From Escherichia phage MN01: a stretch of DNA of 64,000 nucleotides. Every line of letters starts with the position of its first letter. Within the stretch, counting starts at the first letter, position 1. The position numbers and the translations under genes are program-made. The stretch lies in sequence record MT129652.1. One strand, 5' to 3'. Positions 2,543-47,225 of this stretch are shown one piece after another. The notes under the pieces are model-generated. The model was not told the DNA's origin, did not search any database, and saw nothing but the letters and a program-made list of their open reading frames with translations.

Positions 2543-3229
2543 ATGAACGGTCCAAAAACTTTTAATTCTCAAGCTCATGCAGTAGGCAGTTTCGCTGGTA
2601 AAATTTCTAATGATAAAATCAAAAACGAAACTATGTTCTTTAACAGCTCATTGGCTTTCGCTTTTGACAATGGTGGCCCTATTACTCGTAGCTTTATCAT
2701 GAGTCTGCCGGATGATTGGAACACTGACCAGGTTGTATTTGATTCTCGGGTTCATATGCTTATGCCTGGTTGGTATCCTGCTATCCCAGGTTATCACCAT
2801 GATGATGTACCACGCCCGGATATTCCGGTTGGTCAACACTTTATTACTGCAGGGCAACCTGATTATGATAATCCTCGTTACCATTCTGAACATATTCTTG
2901 GTCTTGTTAACGCTGATGTGTGTCCTACTTATTTTGCAACCGGAACTGCGCAATTTAGTCAGATTCCTGAAGGCGAACTTATCTATCGCCAGTGGCATAA
3001 AGAAGTTCTGGAAAAAATTGAGTCCAATGAATTAACCAAGTGGGATGCTCCTGACCGCACGTTGCTCCAGTTTGATTGGCAGACATGGCATACAGGTTCT
3101 CGCGCAGTAAGTAATGGTTGGCGCTGGTTTGGTCGTGTGTCTCGTAATACTGACCGTGTTAAAAAGATTACAAATGAAATCCGCGTCAATGCTCAAGTAT
3201 ATCTGGAATTCCCTATGGAGGGCTGGTAA
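2543..3229 (+). CDS. Hypothetical protein, possible 2OG-Fe(II) oxygenase/cupin-like
   Basis: 228 aa; His/Asp cluster GYHHDD followed later by WHTGSR...RVSR, resembling an HxD...H...R triad; promoter-leader with inverted repeat upstream. Confidence 0.55.
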   Translation: MNGPKTFNSQAHAVGSFAGKISNDKIKNETMFFNSSLAFAFDNGGPITRSFIMSLPDDWNTDQVVFDSRVHMLMPGWYPAIPGYHHDDVPRPDIPVGQHFITAGQPDYDNPRYHSEHILGLVNADVCPTYFATGTAQFSQIPEGELIYRQWHKEVLEKIESNELTKWDAPDRTLLQFDWQTWHTGSRAVSNGWRWFGRVSRNTDRVKKITNEIRVNAQVYLEFPMEGW

Positions 3230-3816
3230 TGGCCCTTTATGAACCCGGCTGCATGGGTGTTGATGTAAACTTCATCCGCCGGGCAGAAAATACAGGTATA
3301 ATTGTATCAAGAGACGAATTTATGATTACCAAAAAATATTGGGCGAACCTTGATGATGGTGATGAAGGAATCAAGGTGGAAAATGTTGATTGGTCGCGAT
3401 GCAATCGTCATGTGAAAGAGCTTTTAATTAAGGAATATAAAATGGGATACATCATTAATGGGCATCAACCAGAACCGCTCAAAGAACAGACACCCGACCC
3501 ATTAATTTCTTATAGCAAGAAATATGGATTTCGTACCTGGAGTGATGAATTTGATAAGTTGATTTGTTCCAGGTTTTATGCCTGGGCTGGAATCTTATTT
3601 TTACCATTCCTGTGGTTTTTCTTGACAGGCAAAAATGAAGCACCCGTAGCTGTAATGGGCGCGTGCTTTTCTACTGCTCTTGCTGGGCTTATTGCATCAT
3701 TTTTATGGACTATGGTTATTGAAGTACCTTTTCGTATTTCTAAAGTTAAAAAGGTATATGACGATATCACTAAGAAAAATACATTGAACTCCTTTATTGA
3801 GGAATGCCGTAAATGA
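3229..3816 (+). CDS. Hypothetical membrane protein
   Basis: 195 aa; TAATG overlap with upstream stop; C-terminal hydrophobic helices (WAGILFLPFLWFFL, ALAGLIASFLWTMVI). Confidence 0.55.
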   Translation: MALYEPGCMGVDVNFIRRAENTGIIVSRDEFMITKKYWANLDDGDEGIKVENVDWSRCNRHVKELLIKEYKMGYIINGHQPEPLKEQTPDPLISYSKKYGFRTWSDEFDKLICSRFYAWAGILFLPFLWFFLTGKNEAPVAVMGACFSTALAGLIASFLWTMVIEVPFRISKVKKVYDDITKKNTLNSFIEECRK

Positions 3817-4049
3817 GTATTGCAATTTATATTAAATCCGAGTCATGTGATTCTTATCTGTATTCCTATGACACTGGAACACCAGAAGAGAAAATCAAAG
3901 ATGATTTAGAAACTGATTTAGATATGTTCCGCCCGATTTCTGAATACAGAATTCAAACTTCTGATAGTGAATCTCCTTCATTGGAAAACAGACTTGAATT
4001 TTTAATGAGTGATATTTTTAACCAATCATGGAAACGTGACGATGAGTAA
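3813..4049 (+). CDS. Hypothetical acidic protein
   Basis: 78 aa; ATGA start/stop overlap with upstream gene. Confidence 0.45.
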   Translation: MSIAIYIKSESCDSYLYSYDTGTPEEKIKDDLETDLDMFRPISEYRIQTSDSESPSLENRLEFLMSDIFNQSWKRDDE

Positions 4050-4500
4050 GAAAAACAAGGTGAAAGAATTATCTGCTGGCATTATTTTCATGACTGAAGA
4101 TAAAGAGTTATTCATGGGTCGTGTGACTGGTTCTCGTAAACCAGGTATGCCTGCACACAAATGGGACATCCCTAAAGGTCATGTTGAAGCTGGTGAATCC
4201 CCGATTGAAGCGGCTATCCGTGAAACCGAAGAAGAAACCGGGTTTACTCAATACGACCCGGCATTCTTAAAGGACCTGGGCGAATTCCGTTATTCAGATA
4301 ACAAAAATCTTCACCTGTTTTTGTACACGGTTCCGGTCGAGCATGAGCAGTTCAGACATAGTAAATGCTCTGCCTATCATACCTTCCCGGATGGTAGTTC
4401 GATTCCAGAGTTCGATGCATTTGCTCTGATTAAACCAAGTCAATGGCAGTATGTGATGGGCAAATCGATGTACAAGGTACTGACTCAAATTTTCGGATAA
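4042..4500 (+). CDS. nudE: Nudix hydrolase NudE (e.1)
   Basis: Nudix box GHVEAGESPIEAAIRETEEETGF; position immediately upstream of lysozyme as in T4. Confidence 0.8.
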   Translation: MSKKNKVKELSAGIIFMTEDKELFMGRVTGSRKPGMPAHKWDIPKGHVEAGESPIEAAIRETEEETGFTQYDPAFLKDLGEFRYSDNKNLHLFLYTVPVEHEQFRHSKCSAYHTFPDGSSIPEFDAFALIKPSQWQYVMGKSMYKVLTQIFG

Positions 4501-4526
4501 TAAATACCCCTATATAAGGGGGTATT
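4497..4526 (+). promoter_or_regulatory. Late-promoter-like TAATAAATA plus hairpin sequestering the lysozyme SD
   Basis: AATACCCC (4503-4510) pairs with GGGGTATT (4519-4526); SD AGGGGG sits in the 3-prime arm; ATG at 4527. Confidence 0.5.
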
Positions 4527-5018
4527 ATGAATATATTCGAAATGTTACGCATAGATGAAGGTTGTAAGTTGGATTTGTATAAAGATACTGAAGGCTATTG
4601 GACCATTGGTATCGGGCAACTGATAACTAAGAACCCATCAAAAGATGTTGCTCGTGCCGAGCTCGACAAACTCATGGGTCGCGTCTGTAATGGTCGCATA
4701 ACCCAGCACGAAGCTGAAACATTGTTTAACCGTTCGGTCGAAAAAGCTAAAGCCGGAATCTTGAGACACCCTGTCTTAAAACCTGTTTATGATGTGCTAG
4801 ATGAAGTTCGTCGTTGTGCACTCATTAATATGGTATTCCAGATGGGTGTTGCTGGTGTTGCTGGTTTTCCTAAGGGTATGCGACTTCTGAAGTCTAAATC
4901 ATGGGAAGCAGCTGCTAAGGAACTGGCGGACTCAAGATGGTATAAAGTCCAGACTCCGAACCGAGCCAAACGAGTTATAGAAACGTTCCGTACTGGAACT
5001 TTTAGCGCATACAAATAA
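4527..5018 (+). CDS. e: Endolysin (T4 lysozyme e, muramidase)
   Basis: N-terminus [12 protein letters not shown]...[13 protein letters not shown] and [12 protein letters not shown]...PNRAKRVI closely match T4 lysozyme. Confidence 0.95.
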
Positions 5019-5026
5019 GGTAAAAT

Positions 5027-5329
5027 ATGAAAACGTATAAAGAATTTATCACCGAAGCGCGCGTAAGTGCAGGTAAATTAGAAGCCGCTGTAAATAAAAA
5101 GGCCCATTCATTTCATGATTTACCAGATAAAGACCGTAAGAAACTTGTAAGCCTTTATATTGACAAAGAGCGTATTCTAGCTCTCCCTGGCGCTAACGAA
5201 GGTAAACAGGCCAAGCCTTTGAATTCTGTCGAAAAGAAAATTGATAACTTTGCTTCTAAGTTCGGCATGTCTATGGATGACCTTCAGCAAGCGGCTATCG
5301 AAGCAGCTAAAGCAATTAAAGGTAAATAA
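5027..5329 (+). CDS. Internal head protein (IPIII/IPII-like) with capsid-targeting sequence
   Basis: Starts [11 protein letters not shown], matching the T4 internal-protein CTS MKTYQEFIAE with an I-x-E protease site; 100 aa; adjacent to e as in T4. Confidence 0.7.
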
Positions 5330-5331
5330 CA

Positions 5332-5384
5332 GTTTACTTCCACGATACGTGTGATATAATGTTCTCCTACAAACATAGGAGAAC
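5332..5384 (+). promoter_or_regulatory. Sigma70-type early promoter followed by SD-sequestering hairpin upstream of denV
   Basis: GTTTAC (5332-5337), 17-bp spacer, TATAAT (5355-5360); then GTTCTCCT/AGGAGAAC inverted repeat (5361-5384) containing the SD. Confidence 0.5.
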
Positions 5385-5388
5385 AAAC

Positions 5389-5805
5389 ATGACTCGCATT
5401 AATTTGACCCTGGTATCTGAACTTGCTGACCAACATCTTATGGCCGAATATCGTGAACTTCCTCGCGTGTTTGGCGCTGTTCGTAAGCATGTGCAAAATG
5501 GTAAAAAGGTTTCTGACTTTAAAATCCCATCATCTTTTCTTTTAGGGACTGGTCATGTCACCTTCTTTTATGATAAGCTTTTGTTCCTTAAAAACCGACA
5601 TCAAGAACTTATTGCGGAATGTTTAAAGCGAGGGTTTAACATAAAAGATATTTCTACCCAAGACTTAACTGATATTCCTGATGAATGGAAGAATGATTAT
5701 CAACCATCAATCTGGTCAATTGAAATCAGTCAAGCTAGGCTGAATGAGAAAATTTCTCAAAAGCCCGCTTGGTACAAATACTATGGGAAAGCTGTGTACG
5801 CTTAA
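5389..5805 (+). CDS. denV: Endonuclease V (pyrimidine-dimer DNA glycosylase)
   Basis: [35 protein letters not shown]... near-identical to T4 endonuclease V; 138 aa. Confidence 0.92.
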
Positions 5806-5853
5806 CTACAAAGGTTGTATAATGATTTTATCAACCAAACAATGGAATATAAA

Positions 5854-6153
5854 ATGAAAACTTATCAAGAATTTATTACTGAAGCCAAAGCTCCTAAAGC
5901 ATTTCAAATTGGGGTTCAGGGTAATTTAGACCAACAATATGTTGATGCTATTGTAGCAAGCCTCGGTAAACAGGGTGTACAAGTGGATTTGGTTGATTTT
6001 ACTAAAGGTAATACTTTTAATATTGTTACATCTAAAGGTTCTTTAGCTAAAGTTAAAAAGGCCTTTGGTGTAGCACAAGCATACGAAATCGACCATTCTG
6101 AATTAGAAAATAAAGGTCGCCAGAACACAATTAAAGGTTCTGGTTCTTTCTAA
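5854..6153 (+). CDS. Internal head protein (IPII-like) with capsid-targeting sequence
   Basis: Internal ATG gives MKTYQEFITEAKAPKAF...; CTS identical in pattern to T4 IP proteins; 99 aa. Confidence 0.7.
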   Translation: MKTYQEFITEAKAPKAFQIGVQGNLDQQYVDAIVASLGKQGVQVDLVDFTKGNTFNIVTSKGSLAKVKKAFGVAQAYEIDHSELENKGRQNTIKGSGSF

Positions 6154-6313
6154 TAAAGGCAAGCCGGCCCTCTCCTCATGAACGTCGCGTCCTCTGAGTG
6201 ATGGACCTTTCCCTACCTGTAATAAGGTCGAGCCCAAGTGCGGTAAAGGGTTTACATACGGATACATGGATGAATTATGTGCCAAGGAACGGCCCCACAA
6301 TTAAGAGACAACT

Positions 6314-6841
6314 ATGAAATTTTTAACTCCAATTTATCTAACCTTAATGCACGCCTTCGCTGAACGCGCCATTGAACGCTTAGATTCAGACCAATACGCC
6401 TGGTATGAACCCGCTTCAAGAATGCAAGAGTTTGGTACTCTTAGACTTGATGGTGGAAGACAAACGGGTAAAACAAGTGCCATTGCGCAGTTTGCTGCGG
6501 ATTGGGTTTCTAAGGGTAATGATGTGATTGTTATGTCAAGTTCTTCGCATCGCTCACGAGAAATCTGTGATATAATAAAGCGGGTTTCTAAGGCACAGCC
6601 GCATCTTAATGTTGAACGACCTGGTTTTGTTGTATATGATACTGTTCGTTCATTTTTAGATGAAGATCATTTTCACAAGTATCGTGGACTGTCTGTTACC
6701 CGATTATTGATTATTATTGAAGAGCCTATTCGTCTCCCAGCGATGGATAAGTTCTATGAAGCTTATCAGACAATGATGAATAAATTTATGCGTCAGGGTT
6801 CTAAACCTCTGCCACTGTTCTTTGTGGTAGGAATGCAATGA
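6314..6841 (+). CDS. Hypothetical P-loop protein
   Basis: 175 aa; Walker-A-like GGRQTGKTS. Confidence 0.5.
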   Translation: MKFLTPIYLTLMHAFAERAIERLDSDQYAWYEPASRMQEFGTLRLDGGRQTGKTSAIAQFAADWVSKGNDVIVMSSSSHRSREICDIIKRVSKAQPHLNVERPGFVVYDTVRSFLDEDHFHKYRGLSVTRLLIIIEEPIRLPAMDKFYEAYQTMMNKFMRQGSKPLPLFFVVGMQ

Positions 6842-7137
6842 TGACTGATGAAGAACTTTTTGACAAAATCTACTTTATTCCAAAGGTTAGGTCTGAAGAT
6901 TTCGTAAAGAACTATGAAATCTTTAATAAAGCTAATTTCTTTGAGTATGTGTTTTTGTCTGGGCCTTTTATTGGGTCCAGATTTCGTTGCACTGCTCCGA
7001 GTATTCGCTTGATGAAGTTGGTTCCTTACTTTACTCTGGAATTTATTTCTGGACCGTGTAAGGGTATTATCACTCGTAGCCTCCTGACCTATGACCAGGA
7101 TGTGCGATTAATTAGTGACTGGAAAAAATATGTCTAA
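6838..7137 (+). CDS. Hypothetical protein
   Basis: 99 aa ORF; ATGA overlap with upstream stop. Confidence 0.45.
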   Translation: MMTDEELFDKIYFIPKVRSEDFVKNYEIFNKANFFEYVFLSGPFIGSRFRCTAPSIRLMKLVPYFTLEFISGPCKGIITRSLLTYDQDVRLISDWKKYV

Positions 7138-7344
7138 ATTGACTATTGAAGGTTCTGAAGAAGCTCTGAAGATGTTTGTTGACTGGTTCCACGAACAGGG
7201 CGAACAAGGCTTTATGGAATGTTGGGACGGCGGCCAATGGAATGGTAAAGAAATTGTTTACCCAACTACGTATATCTCCGTGCAAGGTTTGACTGAAGGC
7301 CTTCGTTTGGTAGAATACGATATCGCAACTGGCGAGGAAGTGAA

Positions 7345-7348
<4 letters not shown>
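7130..7348 (+). CDS. Hypothetical acidic protein
   Basis: Internal ATG at 7130 after GGAAAAAAT; 72 aa. Confidence 0.45.
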
Positions 7349-7928
<580 letters not shown>

Positions 7929-38211: not shown

Positions 38212-38454
38212 ATGGAAACATTAATTGCAGGTACTGTTGTTCTTGGCGCTGGTTCTTTCTTCCTGGCTGCACTGGCATATTTTCTGCCGTGGATTATCGC
38301 ACTACTGCGAGGAACCAAAAGTAATTGCGGAATCTTCTTTGTTAACCTCCTGTTAGGTTGGACAATGGTCGGATGGTTTATTGCATTTATCTGGGCACTC
38401 GTTGCTGAGCGTAAATCAAACGCACAAGTAATTATCATCAAGGAAACCAAATGA
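38212..38454 (+). CDS. imm: Imm-like superinfection immunity membrane protein
   Basis: 80 aa, two TM helices, LLGWTMVGWFIAFIWAL motif; immediately downstream of 43 as in T4. Confidence 0.55.
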   Translation: METLIAGTVVLGAGSFFLAALAYFLPWIIALLRGTKSNCGIFFVNLLLGWTMVGWFIAFIWALVAERKSNAQVIIIKETK

Positions 38455-38594
38455 AGATAATTACAATTATTGTACTGACTGCATTTTTTAGTATGTCAAT
38501 CTATTGGGCAATAATGACTCCGCATATGATTCCAACTTTAATTTTGGGTTGGGTATTTTTGGGACTCCAAGCTCGCTATGAATGTTTTAATTGA
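38451..38594 (+). CDS. Hypothetical small membrane protein (47 aa)
   Basis: ATGA overlap with the imm stop; hydrophobic. Confidence 0.3.
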   Translation: MKIITIIVLTAFFSMSIYWAIMTPHMIPTLILGWVFLGLQARYECFN

Positions 38595-38604
38595 GGAAAA
38601 TACA

Positions 38605-39108
38605 ATGAAAAAGTTAGCTATCGCAGCTGTTATGCTGCTATCTGGTTGTGCTTACCAGGGTGATGTTGTTAATGCCAACGAGATTGGTAAAGCGCGAATT
38701 GCTGCAGACCGTCAGGTGCATAATGGTTCCTTTGATTTCAAAGGTGGTACTGGACTTATCTACAAACGCGACAACAATCAATGTGGAAATAACTGCGCGA
38801 AATATGCTCAACGTGAAGTTGAATATCAGCGTGAACAAGCCGCGAAGCATGATGAAGTAATCGCTAAATTGGAAGCAGAAACCAAGCGACAAAATGACCT
38901 GGATACTGTTAACCAGATTTCACAGGTCTGCATGTCATATATCAATATGCAGATAAACATCATGCGTGCAGAAGCTTATCAGGCAGCGGAGACGGGTTCT
39001 CCAAAAGCCAATGAGTATCGCGATATGTATCAGCGTTCTGCTCAAAACCGTCTGAGCTATATTAATAAATGTGTAGCTAAAGAGAAAGCACGCCAAGGTA
39101 TTAACTGA
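38605..39108 (+). CDS. Putative lipoprotein
   Basis: Signal peptide with lipobox MKKLAIAAVMLLSGC after GAGGAAAAT SD; helical/coiled C-terminal region; 167 aa. Confidence 0.55.
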   Translation: MKKLAIAAVMLLSGCAYQGDVVNANEIGKARIAADRQVHNGSFDFKGGTGLIYKRDNNQCGNNCAKYAQREVEYQREQAAKHDEVIAKLEAETKRQNDLDTVNQISQVCMSYINMQINIMRAEAYQAAETGSPKANEYRDMYQRSAQNRLSYINKCVAKEKARQGIN

Positions 39109-39215
39109 TGCTATTATTACTTCTGATTGTTGGAACAGTAATTGGTTTGCTGCTATTAGAAAAGCGTAATAAGCATTTGGCTGAAGAAAACTGGAAACGT
39201 GGAAACGTTTACTAA
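39108..39215 (+). CDS. Hypothetical single-pass membrane peptide (35 aa)
   Basis: MLLLLLIVGTVIGLLLL... ; ATG overlaps the lipoprotein stop. Confidence 0.3.
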   Translation: MLLLLLIVGTVIGLLLLEKRNKHLAEENWKRGNVY

Positions 39216-39242
39216 ATTACTCTGAACTGCGAGAAAAATATT

Positions 39243-39371
39243 ATGATTGGTACGCTATTGATTAGTCTGTGGCTGTTGTCTGCATTTGGTATTGGTTTTA
39301 TGTACTGGTGGGACAAACGTCAGACCCGGAAGATTGTTGAACGTGCAATTAATCGTGGATTCAATCGTTAA
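39243..39371 (+). CDS. Hypothetical single-pass membrane peptide (42 aa)
   Basis: MIGTLLISLWLLSAFGIGFMYWW... hydrophobic N-terminus, basic C-terminus. Confidence 0.3.
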   Translation: MIGTLLISLWLLSAFGIGFMYWWDKRQTRKIVERAINRGFNR

Positions 39372-39450
39372 TTGCTCTAAAAATACAGTGATATAATTAT
39401 CCTATCTTAAACCTGTGAGAAAAATATAATGGTGCCTATGGAAAAAATGA

Positions 39451-40629
39451 ATGTCTATTGCAGATTTGAAATCCCGTTTGATTAAAGCTTCTACATCTAA
39501 AATGACTGCGACTCTTACCAAGTCCAAGTTTTTTAATGATAAAGATGTAGTTCGTACAAAAATCCCGATGCTGAACATTGCAATCAGCGGTGCACTAGAT
39601 GGTGGTATGCAGTCAGGTTTGACTATTTTTGCTGGTCCGTCAAAACACTTTAAATCCAATATGGGTTTAACGATGGTCTCTGCATATATGAACAAATACC
39701 CCGATGCAATCTGTTTGTTCTATGATTCAGAATTTGGTATCACAGAAGCATATCTTCGTGCAATGAAAGTAGACCCGGAACGTGTTATCCATACACCAAT
39801 CCAGTCGGTTGAACAATTGAAAGTTGATATGGTTAACCAGCTTGAAGCAATTGAGCGTGGTGAAAAAGTCATTATCTTTATTGACTCAATCGGTAACATG
39901 GCGTCGAAAAAAGAAACAGAAGATGCGATGAACGAAAAAGTCGTTGGCGATATGACTCGTGCTAAATCCCTGAAATCTCTGTTCCGTATTGTTACCCCAT
40001 ATTTTAGTATCAAGGATATTCCTTGTGTCGCGGTTAACCATACAATCGAGACGATTGAGATGTACAGCAAAACCGTTATGACCGGTGGTACAGGTGTTAT
40101 GTATTCTGCGGACACAGTATTCATTATCGGCAAACGCCAGATTAAAGAAACTGGTAAAGAACTTGAAGGTTTCCAATTTGTTCTGAACGCCGAAAAATCT
40201 CGTATGGTCAAAGAGAAAAGTAAATTCTTCATTGATGTAAAATTCGATGGTGGTATTGACCCGTATTCTGGTCTGCTTGATATGGCAATGGAAATCGGAT
40301 TTGTGGTGAAACCGAAAGTTGGTTGGTATAACCGTGAATATCTTGATGTTGAGACCGGTGAAATGGTCCGCGAAGAAAAATCATGGCGTGCAAAAGATAC
40401 TAACTGCACCGAATTCTGGGGTCCGTTGTTCAAGCACGAACCTTTCCGCGATGCAATCAAACGCCATTACCAACTGGGTGCAATCGATAGCAATGCTGTT
40501 GTTGATGCCGAAGTTGATGCGCTTATTGCCTCCAAGGTTGAAAAATACTCTGCTCCTGAAGGTAAGACAAAACCGTCTGCTGCAGATATCGAAAACGATT
40601 TAGATATGATGGAAGACCTTGATGAATGA
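39451..40629 (+). CDS. uvsX: Recombinase UvsX (RecA-like)
   Basis: MSIADLKSRLIKASTSKMTATLTKSKFFNDKDVV..., Walker A GPSKHFKS; 392 aa vs 391 in T4. Confidence 0.95.
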   Translation: MSIADLKSRLIKASTSKMTATLTKSKFFNDKDVVRTKIPMLNIAISGALDGGMQSGLTIFAGPSKHFKSNMGLTMVSAYMNKYPDAICLFYDSEFGITEAYLRAMKVDPERVIHTPIQSVEQLKVDMVNQLEAIERGEKVIIFIDSIGNMASKKETEDAMNEKVVGDMTRAKSLKSLFRIVTPYFSIKDIPCVAVNHTIETIEMYSKTVMTGGTGVMYSADTVFIIGKRQIKETGKELEGFQFVLNAEKSRMVKEKSKFFIDVKFDGGIDPYSGLLDMAMEIGFVVKPKVGWYNREYLDVETGEMVREEKSWRAKDTNCTEFWGPLFKHEPFRDAIKRHYQLGAIDSNAVVDAEVDALIASKVEKYSAPEGKTKPSAADIENDLDMMEDLDE

Positions 40630-44990: not shown

Positions 44991-45158
44991 ATGAAAACAT
45001 TCAAAGATTTTATCAACGAAGATATGGTTGCCGGTGATGCAGGCGGAAACCCAACTAATATCGCAACAGGTACCACTTCCGGGGCAGTTGTCAATAAAGG
45101 CCCTGAACAAATCCCATCAAAAAAGCGTAAGAACAAAGACGATAAACCTACAGTATAA
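44991..45158 (+). CDS. Hypothetical small protein with CTS-like N-terminus (MKTFKDFINED)
   Basis: 55 aa; N-terminus resembles the internal-protein capsid-targeting sequence; late promoter upstream; reading frame depends on the A-run at 45117-45124. Confidence 0.35.
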   Translation: MKTFKDFINEDMVAGDAGGNPTNIATGTTSGAVVNKGPEQIPSKKRKNKDDKPTV

Positions 45159-45190: not shown

Positions 45191-46219
45191 ATGTCATATA
45201 TTGATAAAGAATTTGCAGTCAGAGCTTTATCGTATCAACCACGTTATAGAGAAGTCACCGGGAGCACATTTAAGGCAAACTGTCGTTGCAAGGTTTGCGG
45301 TGACTCTCAGAAAGATTCACACAAGGCCCGATTCTGGGCGTATACCAATCCGGCTGACGGTGCGGTTTACGTGAAATGTTTTAACTGTGACTACTCCACG
45401 CATATAAGCAAATACATAAAAGAGTTTGAGCCTGATTTACATCGGGAATATATGGTTGAGAAGTATAAGGAGAATGCCTTTGGCAGACAACGTAATGAAG
45501 TTGCAGAAACTCCGAAAGAACCAGAAAAAACTCCGGTTATTGAGCAACTTGCTTTTTGCGAAAGAATCGATACTTTACCAGAAGCGCATCCGATAGTTAA
45601 GTATGTAAAAAGTCGGTGTATTCCGAGCAATGTTTGGAACCGGTTATGGTTTACAAACAAATGGCCTGCATTAGTTAACTCCGTTAATCCTGGGACGTAT
45701 AAGAATGAAACGAATGAACCACGCTTGGTTATTCCTATCTTCAACGGCAAAAAAGAAATCGAATCTTTCCAAGGACGAGCTCTTCGCAAAGATGCACCAC
45801 AAAAATATATCACAATCAAAGCCCACCCAGAAGCTTCCAAAGTCTATGGTGTAGACAAGATTGACGAACGCAAGCGCGTGTGGGTAATGGAAGGTCCGAT
45901 TGATAGTTTGTTTATCCCTAACAGCATTGCGATAACCGGTGGAACATTAGCATTGGAAGCCGTTCCTTATGCAGAAACCCGAGTATGGGTAATGGACAAC
46001 GAGCCAAGACATCCTGATACGATTAAACGTATGAAGAAACTTGTTGAAGCCGGTGAAGCCGTTATGTTCTGGGACAATGCACCATGGCATACGAAAGACA
46101 TAAATGAGATGGTTAAATCAGAGGGTGCAACCCCTGAACAAATCGAATCATATATGGCCGATAACGTTACTCAAGGGCTGCTGGCGAGAATGCGACTTTC
46201 GAAGTACGCAAAAGTTTAG
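45191..46219 (+). CDS. 61: DNA primase gp61
   Basis: N-terminal zinc-binding CRCKVCGDS...CFNC, TOPRIM-like core; 342 aa as in T4. Confidence 0.9.
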   Translation: MSYIDKEFAVRALSYQPRYREVTGSTFKANCRCKVCGDSQKDSHKARFWAYTNPADGAVYVKCFNCDYSTHISKYIKEFEPDLHREYMVEKYKENAFGRQRNEVAETPKEPEKTPVIEQLAFCERIDTLPEAHPIVKYVKSRCIPSNVWNRLWFTNKWPALVNSVNPGTYKNETNEPRLVIPIFNGKKEIESFQGRALRKDAPQKYITIKAHPEASKVYGVDKIDERKRVWVMEGPIDSLFIPNSIAITGGTLALEAVPYAETRVWVMDNEPRHPDTIKRMKKLVEAGEAVMFWDNAPWHTKDINEMVKSEGATPEQIESYMADNVTQGLLARMRLSKYAKV

Positions 46220-46622: not shown

Positions 46623-46706
46623 ATATCCTCCTTTCTTGTATTTATGCTTCAAACCAATACGATATAATTAACATACAAATAACATGAATTGATAAGGAAA
46701 AATATA

Positions 46707-47225
46707 ATGGCTCATTTTAACGAGTGTTCTCAACTGATTGCGGGTGTTGATAAAGCTGAAGAAGCTTATGACAATGCAATTATCGAAGGTACTGACCCGC
46801 TGCAGATTATGCTTGATATGCAGAAATCTTTGCAGGTCCGGTTGGCTACTGAAAAACCAGAATATAACTCACATCCAGATGAATTGGCTACTGCAGGTGA
46901 TGTTGTTACCTGGCTCCGCAACCAGAAAGATTATATTGATGATGAATTCCGCGAACTGATTACTGCATTAGGTGGCATGTCCAATGGCGAGAAAGCTGCC
47001 TCGGCCGTATGGAAACCATGGAAAGCACAACATGGTGAAATGCAGCAAACCCTGATTAACGATTTGTCTCCTGAAGACCAGCTCGAAATTAAATTCGAAA
47101 TGATTGATATCCTGCACTTTGTTCTGAACATGTTCCATGGTCTTGGTCTATCTGCAGAAGAAATCTTTAAACTGTATTACCTGAAAAACGCTGAGAACTT
47201 TGCTCGTCAGGACCGAGGTTATTAA
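46707..47225 (+). CDS. 56: dCTP pyrophosphatase gp56 (MazG-like)
   Basis: MAHFNECSQLIAGVDKA...DPLQIMLDMQ...EDQLEIKFEMIDILHFVLNMF...NFARQDRGY closely matches T4 gp56. Confidence 0.9.
   Translation: MAHFNECSQLIAGVDKAEEAYDNAIIEGTDPLQIMLDMQKSLQVRLATEKPEYNSHPDELATAGDVVTWLRNQKDYIDDEFRELITALGGMSNGEKAASAVWKPWKAQHGEMQQTLINDLSPEDQLEIKFEMIDILHFVLNMFHGLGLSAEEIFKLYYLKNAENFARQDRGY

Follow-up and report, generated by a model that had tools for sequence, protein, structure and literature searches.

Two putative internal-protein cassettes flank denV in the T4-related Escherichia phage MN01

We analysed a stretch of 64,000 nucleotides (64 kb) from Escherichia phage MN01 (MT129652.1), henceforth the window, which derives from a T4-related myovirus of the genus Gaprivervirus (SP18/VR7/P896-like). 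Here denV is flanked by two open reading frames, ORF A and ORF B, each of which is very probably a cassette of the polymorphic internal-protein (IP) locus of T4-type phages. Their products would be packaged into the head, cleaved by gp21 and injected into the next host, ORF A acting as an IPII-type inhibitor and ORF B against another defense. This reading draws on sequence identity, the determinants of the capsid-targeting sequence (CTS), synteny, a mosaic pattern of identity and a deletion junction. The 2.9-kb stretch around both ORFs has 92–97% identity to P896, SP18, VR7 and relatives. The local features are:

4039–4500 (+): nudE
4499–4521 (to 4527) (+): late-promoter-like sequence AATAAATA, then a predicted hairpin CCCCTATATAAGGGG over the e Shine-Dalgarno
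4527–5018 (+): e, lysozyme (Phage_lysozyme), syntenic in T4, SP18, VR7 and P896; left anchor of the locus
5027–5329 (+): ORF A, putative ipII orthologue, 100 aa, beginning 8 nt past the e stop codon
5333–5383 (+): PeSL-like unit (see below) closing the ipII cassette on its 3' side, with an early-type promoter-like sequence TTTACT-16-TATAAT (TG-extended; 10/12 scan match)
5389–5805 (+): denV, pyrimidine-dimer DNA glycosylase (Pfam Pyr_excise, E 9e-16; phrog_1183, E 7e-62)
5800–5823 (+): promoter-like leader of the denV-proximal slot (GCTTAA, 12-nt spacer, TATAAT)
5849–5883 (+): 35-nt repeat ATAAAATGAAAACTTATCAAGAATTTATTACTGAA, composed of the 30-nt CTS-coding sequence preceded by 5 nt of leader; deletion junction relative to P896
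5854–6153 (+): ORF B, putative Ip7-family internal protein, 99 aa
6314–6841 (+): vs.8

Identity of the two proteins and their shared leader

ORF A is identical to T4 ipII at 94 of 100 amino acids and 286 of 303 nucleotides (94.4% DNA identity), and it matches phrog_7857 ‘internal virion protein’ over residues 1–100 of 100 (E 1e-54). Proteins with 95–100% identity to ORF A were found in about 190–197 phage records, many of them labelled ipII, from phages of Escherichia, Klebsiella, Shigella, Salmonella and Yersinia. These comparisons make ORF A the T4 IPII (Ip2) orthologue, with the same 100-aa length, the same position between e and denV, the same CTS layout and 94% identity. Relative to T4 IPII, the CTS of ORF A carries two substitutions (K5 for Q, T9 for A), and four more (S14G, K47R, S67A, G99D) lie in the mature part. 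The CTS is encoded at 5027–5056, and the predicted mature protein, starting at Ala11, has 90 aa (9.8 kDa, pI 9.7) and is modeled by AF2 as a 4-helix bundle (pLDDT 85).

The mechanical ORF of ORF B spans 5815–6153 and begins at TTG. We regard ATG 5854 as the biologically sensible start, which yields a predicted protein of 99 aa beginning MKTYQEFITEAKA; MKTY is where all homologues begin, and this ATG has a GGA 9 nt upstream. The protein is 100% identical to SP18 gp122. Its identity to Ip7 of T2 and CC31 is 49–51% over 97 of 99 residues, and phrog_2667 ‘internal head protein’ is a full-length match (E 8e-43). The VR7 annotation relates the gp122-type protein to ‘T2 internal head protein Ip7’. 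On this basis ORF B is a member of an already named family; the name Ip7, also used in the VR7/SP18 annotations, reportedly goes back to Repoila et al. in 1994. ORF B aligns full length with Ip7 of T2, CC31 and JS98-type phages and has the same CTS and size, whereas the gene of T2 and CC31 is in the other IP locus, beside 57B, and that of ORF B is between denV and vs.8. Its CTS is encoded at 5854–5883, and the predicted mature protein has 89 aa (9.5 kDa, pI 9.3), with an AF2 model of a ferredoxin-like beta-alpha-beta-beta-alpha-beta fold (pLDDT 75). Searching an Ip7 alignment profile against 1.8 billion representative proteins returned two strong clusters only, which suggests that the family is confined to T4-like phages. 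Fold searches with the predicted structures gave generic matches that indicated no mechanism, and nothing useful came from a PDB sequence search, NCBIfam or PADLOC.

An earlier note on this DNA had proposed two CTS-bearing internal-protein genes on both sides of denV, and the ORFs, their leaders and the PHROG matches bear this out. The note described both as 100-aa ORFs beginning MKTY(K/Q)EFITEA; the leader is as described in both, and the length is correct for ORF A and one residue too long for ORF B. The alignment against T4 internal proteins that it proposed as a check places ORF A with IPII. Its suggestion that the payload domains may differ from those of T4 consequently fails for ORF A, which by this alignment is IPII itself in its T4 place.

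The two proteins have 10 of their first 11 residues in common and then 4 of 88 in an ungapped comparison, so the leader is a specific shared module and does not reflect overall homology. We searched a relaxed CTS pattern in all six frames of the window and obtained three matches, namely ORF A, ORF B and gp61.1 at 44991; with so few matches the likeness of the two leaders is not a matter of chance. For T4 IPIII, the first ten residues suffice for packaging; residues 4 (aromatic) and 7 (Phe) carry targeting, and residues 8 and 10 carry processing (PMC9026906). The protease gp21 cuts after L/I-X-E, and an Asp at position 10 blocks cleavage (PMC9026906). Both ORFs encode the targeting residues Y4 and F7 (MKTY.EFITE) and a gp21 site at I8-T9-E10↓A11 (the arrow marks the cut), which is the sole (L/I)-x-E motif in each protein. 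Judged by sequence, ORF A and ORF B thus carry every experimentally defined determinant of capsid targeting and processing, and both predicted mature proteins are small and basic, as are the T4 internal proteins.

By analogy with T4, the proteins would be packaged, cleaved and injected as follows. The 10-residue CTS MKTY(K/Q)EFITE would dock each protein on the prohead scaffolding core, and gp21 would then cut after Glu10 (I-T-E↓A). A basic protein of ~9.5 kDa, probably hundreds of copies of it, would thereby be left free amid the packaged DNA. In the next infection it would be injected ahead of or with the DNA. The delivery principle (CTS, gp21 cleavage, injection) would be the same as that of T4 IPI*, the inhibitor of GmrSD-CT596, which is of similar size and charge. 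Gene 21, the scaffold genes and the head gene module lie outside the window; the head gene module is a core module of T4-related phages (PMC9026906). Our literature search found no virion proteome paper for the VR7/SP18 group.

Cassette turnover in the e-denV-vs.8 interval

ORF A and ORF B lie in the polymorphic e-denV-vs.8 ip locus (the other ip locus being 57B-ipI), in synteny with T4, SP18, VR7, P896 and 32 other loci. With denV as anchor, we collected the CTS-bearing ORFs of 36 T4-like loci. Such ORFs occur on both sides of denV and fall into 17 unrelated payload families, of which Ip7 is the commonest (18 of 36 loci). We interpret the interval as a two-slot cassette locus, with denV (77% amino acid identity to T4 denV, 98% to SP18) as the conserved gene between the slots. 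The gene orders most relevant here are:

SP18 and VR7: e – denV – ip10 – 125c-like – ip7 – vs.8
P896: e – ipII – denV – 125c-like – ip7 – vs.8
T4: e – ipIII – ipII – denV – vs.8
MN01 window: e – ipII – denV – ip7 – vs.8

The order around denV had been described as unlike that of T4. This is so in that ipIII is absent and an ip7-type gene lies beyond denV, and not so for ORF A, which occupies the place of T4 ipII between e and denV. The order ipII-denV-ip7-vs.8 is collinear, at ~85% DNA identity, in the Dhakavirus-type phages IME08, IME341, C6 and MX01, and IME08-type genomes annotate these genes as ipII and internal head protein. The arrangement and both gene families are therefore already known from annotated genomes.

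The ipII cassette and its surroundings have different affinities to T4. DNA identity is 94.4% in the cassette and 66–70% in the flanking nudE, e, denV and vs.8, a mosaic signature that points to horizontal exchange of the cassette, which here stands without its T4 neighbor ipIII.

A second event is evident beyond denV. Relative to its closest relative, P896, the window has a 321-bp deletion that has removed the 125c-like cassette: it matches P896 at 3284–3326 and then at 3648–4119. In P896 this cassette is bracketed by two exact copies of ATAAAATGAAAACTTATCAAGAATTTATTACTGAA, of which the window keeps one. The leader of ORF B is the denV-proximal leader, identical to that before ip10 in SP18 and before the 125c-like gene in P896; ip7 itself has another leader in both of these phages. 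A deletion at the 35-nt repeat accounts for this, since it would leave ORF B with the denV-proximal leader.

Exchange and loss of cassettes would thus proceed by homologous recombination at the CTS-coding 30-mer and at promoter/stem-loop units of the PeSL type. PeSLs combine a promoter with a stem-loop and have been proposed to bring about the modular shuffling of ORFan cassettes in T4-type phages (Arbiol et al. 2010, PMC2839356). The present locus resembles that system in that a cassette has its own sigma-70-like promoter and stem-loop, and in that indels fall between short conserved repeats. One such intergenic unit lies beside the variable gene at 5333–5383; its stem-loop, TTCTCCTA-CAAACA-TAGGAGAA, has an 8-bp stem and overlaps the denV Shine-Dalgarno. 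Comparable units occur in SP18 and T4, and SP18 and P896 have GTTTAC...CATAAT inside a stem-loop upstream of ip7. In contrast to PeSL shuffling, the repeat that recombined here is mostly coding (the 30-nt CTS), and the junction of the P896 indel is in this leader/CTS-coding repeat, downstream of the promoter and stem-loop. Because the repeat is mostly CTS-coding, a protein-targeting signal would double as a homology patch.

We compared CTS codons among cassettes. The mean number of differences per 30 nt is 3.9 for different families in the same genome, 4.9 for different families in different genomes and 2.9 for orthologues, which points only weakly to homogenization within genomes (concerted evolution). 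Tandem IP neighbors often have identical 30-mers, whereas the two CTS copies of the window differ at 4 of 30 nt and so are poor recombination partners.

Expression and the anti-restriction role

No exact late promoter TATAAATA was found in window positions 3000–7500, and four are present on the + strand of the whole window. Upstream of e, AATAAATA is a 7/8 variant of it, one base off. T4 has two canonical TATAAATA in the equivalent place directly upstream of e, and its ipIII/ipII unit has no others. The region upstream of e resembles that of T4, where early transcripts keep the lysozyme ribosome-binding site sequestered and late ones start within the hairpin, the late promoter being here the one-base variant. 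Late transcripts starting at AATAAATA most likely read through e into ORF A, given that ORF A begins so close to the e stop codon and that no terminator-like site was found on the + strand between e and 6486.

The early-type sequence upstream of denV, and the leader at 5800–5823 upstream of ORF B, which appears to resemble the T4 middle-promoter layout, together with the lack of a canonical late promoter in 3000–7500, would fit a different account. The leaders could be inherited relics, on proteins made early from sigma-70-like promoters that stay in the cytoplasm and are never packaged. We consider this very improbable. T4 ipIII/ipII also has canonical late promoters only upstream of e, and yet IPII is packaged at about 360 copies (PMC9026906), and no + strand terminator-like site separates e from ORF B. 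Furthermore, the leader is kept to its four functional residues across the 17 unrelated payload families, which indicates selection for targeting.

The claim that the packaged internal proteins of T4 include anti-restriction factors is established for Ip1–3 (PMC12373910). T4 Ip2 inhibits the BrxU-like type IV nuclease GmrSD-ECOR21, as described in 2025; for Ip3 the target is the GmrS1/GmrSD2 pair of ECOR17 and for Ip1 it is GmrSD-CT596, each of the three blocking one GmrSD variant without cross-protection (PMC12373910). By analogy this role carries over well to ORF A. With a mature part 96% identical to that of T4 Ip2, ORF A most probably shares the Ip2 function. The most likely mode of action is that of T4, stoichiometric inhibition of a BrxU-like GmrSD type IV nuclease; the Ip2-type target is likewise extrapolated from T4. 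Its specificity could instead have diverged from that of T4 Ip2 toward another nuclease variant. The four mature-part substitutions would allow for this, as would the strict specificity of Ip-GmrSD pairs (PMC12373910), and four differences between the IPI proteins of T4 and RB69 have been discussed as possibly altering specificity. We judge such divergence improbable, as the changes in the otherwise 96% identical mature part are conservative and the same protein is kept at 95–100% identity in phages of Escherichia, Klebsiella, Shigella and Yersinia.

For ORF B, with its predicted ferredoxin-like fold, the most likely activity under the same scheme would be neutralization of another host defense at DNA entry, although the assignment of a different defense to ORF B is speculative. 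Silas et al. assayed ip4–ip10 against further GmrSD variants, and an apparent interaction between ip7 and CLS_011 ‘could not be reproduced’ (PMC12373910). This lack of reproducible GmrSD inhibition is one of several observations that would suit a mainly structural or DNA-associated head filler with no anti-defense role, which neutralizes DNA charge or aids head assembly, as proposed for IPIII. Ip7 is also the commonest cassette and well conserved in sequence, the mature ORF B is basic, and IPIII mutants of T4 show assembly defects (PMC9026906). However, Ip7 appears dispensable, being absent from many T4-like loci including the e-denV locus of T4, and IPIII, formerly thought structural, proved to be a GmrSD inhibitor (PMC12373910). 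ORF B moreover sits in a hotspot in which all three characterized members are anti-restriction proteins. A head-filler role is accordingly rather unlikely, although less so than a changed specificity of ORF A, and we favor an anti-defense role for ORF B.

The DNA modification of the phage bears on which type IV enzymes threaten it. No homologue of gp42 or beta-glucosyltransferase was found between imm and uvsX (38212–40626) or elsewhere in the window. A gene 56-like dCTPase/dUTPase is at 46689–47225, the ORFs at 49.7–51.8 kb are modA/modB/srd-like, and recent work has placed alternative cytosine-modification clusters in related genera.

A structured element upstream of vs.8 and a gp23-like peptide

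Two further observations in the window are more novel than the internal-protein finding. They concern the following features:

6151–6315 (+): conserved structured RNA-like element, ~165 nt, between ORF B and vs.8
44991–45158 (+): gp61.1, 55 aa, upstream of the primase gene
45191–46219: primase gene 61

By blastn, DNA conservation of the 160-nt spacer between ORF B and vs.8 extends to 987 phage records from several genera, and a 40-nt core of the element is also found in Vequintavirus. We drew its structure by hand, with seven helices, on a MAFFT alignment of 19 diverse copies. In this structure 90% of cells are paired, compared with 25–45% in slid controls, and compensatory changes are seen at 10–17 pairs (44 cells at 10 pairs), compared with ≤6 pairs (14 cells) in the slid controls. 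None of 500 shuffles reached the observed percentage of pairing, the counts of compensatory changes or the covariation score; for further pair types the count did not exceed that of the shuffles. Several positions have G-U pairs, consistent with an RNA on the gene strand. Folding of the spacer as a single sequence gave z = -0.26, and the structure is seen by comparative analysis only.

Searches with a covariance model (R1) recovered exactly one copy from the window and a single copy from each T4-like locus. Its place is always the gene strand, after the denV/IP array and before vs.8. In one T4-like contig the element forms a tandem pair (locus L019, 4414–4539 and 4549–4690). In some Klebsiella phages (L034–L036, about 5036–5201) it lies between two IP cassettes and not beside vs.8, and can thus sit inside the IP array. 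The Vequintavirus copy is partial and intergenic, with the same architecture and different helix sequences. The link between the element and the IP array is positional only. A search of 185,579 species genomes of bacteria and archaea did not recover the invariant core of the element.

Several identities for the spacer were considered and rejected. It is not T4 oriE (6154–6313 having been the candidate), which lies near repEA/repEB, and it is not a known RNA family, tRNA or tmRNA, with no match to Rfam (E ≤ 10) or by ARAGORN. A 38-aa ORF at 6201–6317 overlaps the vs.8 start, and a conserved peptide is unlikely because homologues have single-nucleotide indels.

In T4, vs.8 is annotated with 219 aa, and a 44-codon extension overlaps the element (locus L004, NC_000866 about 64.80–64.94 kb, gene strand). 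The vs.8 start used in the window (6314) and in its relatives aligns with a downstream T4 ATG that is preceded by GAGAAGAA. The T4 annotation is probably too long, and the element may have been overlooked in T4 because it is hidden under the annotated vs.8 N-terminus.

The third match to the CTS pattern, gp61.1, has a canonical late promoter 24 nt upstream. It begins MKTFKDFINE↓D, in keeping with the CTS determinants, and T4-type versions likewise have ten residues and then ↓D. Longer homologues, from Acinetobacter, Aeromonas, Vibrio and other T4-like phages, read ...LFE↓DMVAGD at the same junction, a gp21-type site. We compared gp61.1 with T4 gp23 residues 57–101 and obtained a gapless alignment with 44% identity (E 2e-10), in which the cleavage sites are in register (FLTE↓AEIGGD in gp23, FINE↓DMVAGD in gp61.1) and F59, F62, L63 and E65 of the gp23 propeptide fall at the positions of the CTS determinants. 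In this alignment gp61.1 has the appearance of a miniature of gp23, covering its cleavage-site region and N-terminal arm. The likeness suggests that gp61.1 may be targeted to the capsid and released by the protease as a mimic of the major capsid protein's N-arm, and that the capsid-targeting sequence of internal proteins may imitate the end of the gp23 propeptide. We found no paper describing it in a literature search.

A broader proposal would treat the locus as an array of injected effectors in which the CTS 30-mer is both address label and recombination site, bounded at its 3' side by a functionally tied, hitherto undescribed and Tevenvirinae-wide structured RNA (for transcript processing, stability or boundary homology), with Ip7 directed against a defense beyond the tested GmrSD variants. 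We regard this proposal, taken whole, as a doubtful one.

The internal-protein finding mainly confirms annotation. It adds a probable anti-BrxU/GmrSD role for a gene that most Gaprivervirus records call ‘hypothetical’, and singles out ORF B as a widespread putative injected protein. The structured RNA under T4 vs.8 and the mimicry by gp61.1 are each directly testable in T4. The deletion junction indicates that the codons of a targeting signal may also serve as a recombination patch, which helps to explain how T4-like phages reshuffle their injected counter-defense repertoire, and such reshuffling is relevant to host-range prediction in phage therapy.
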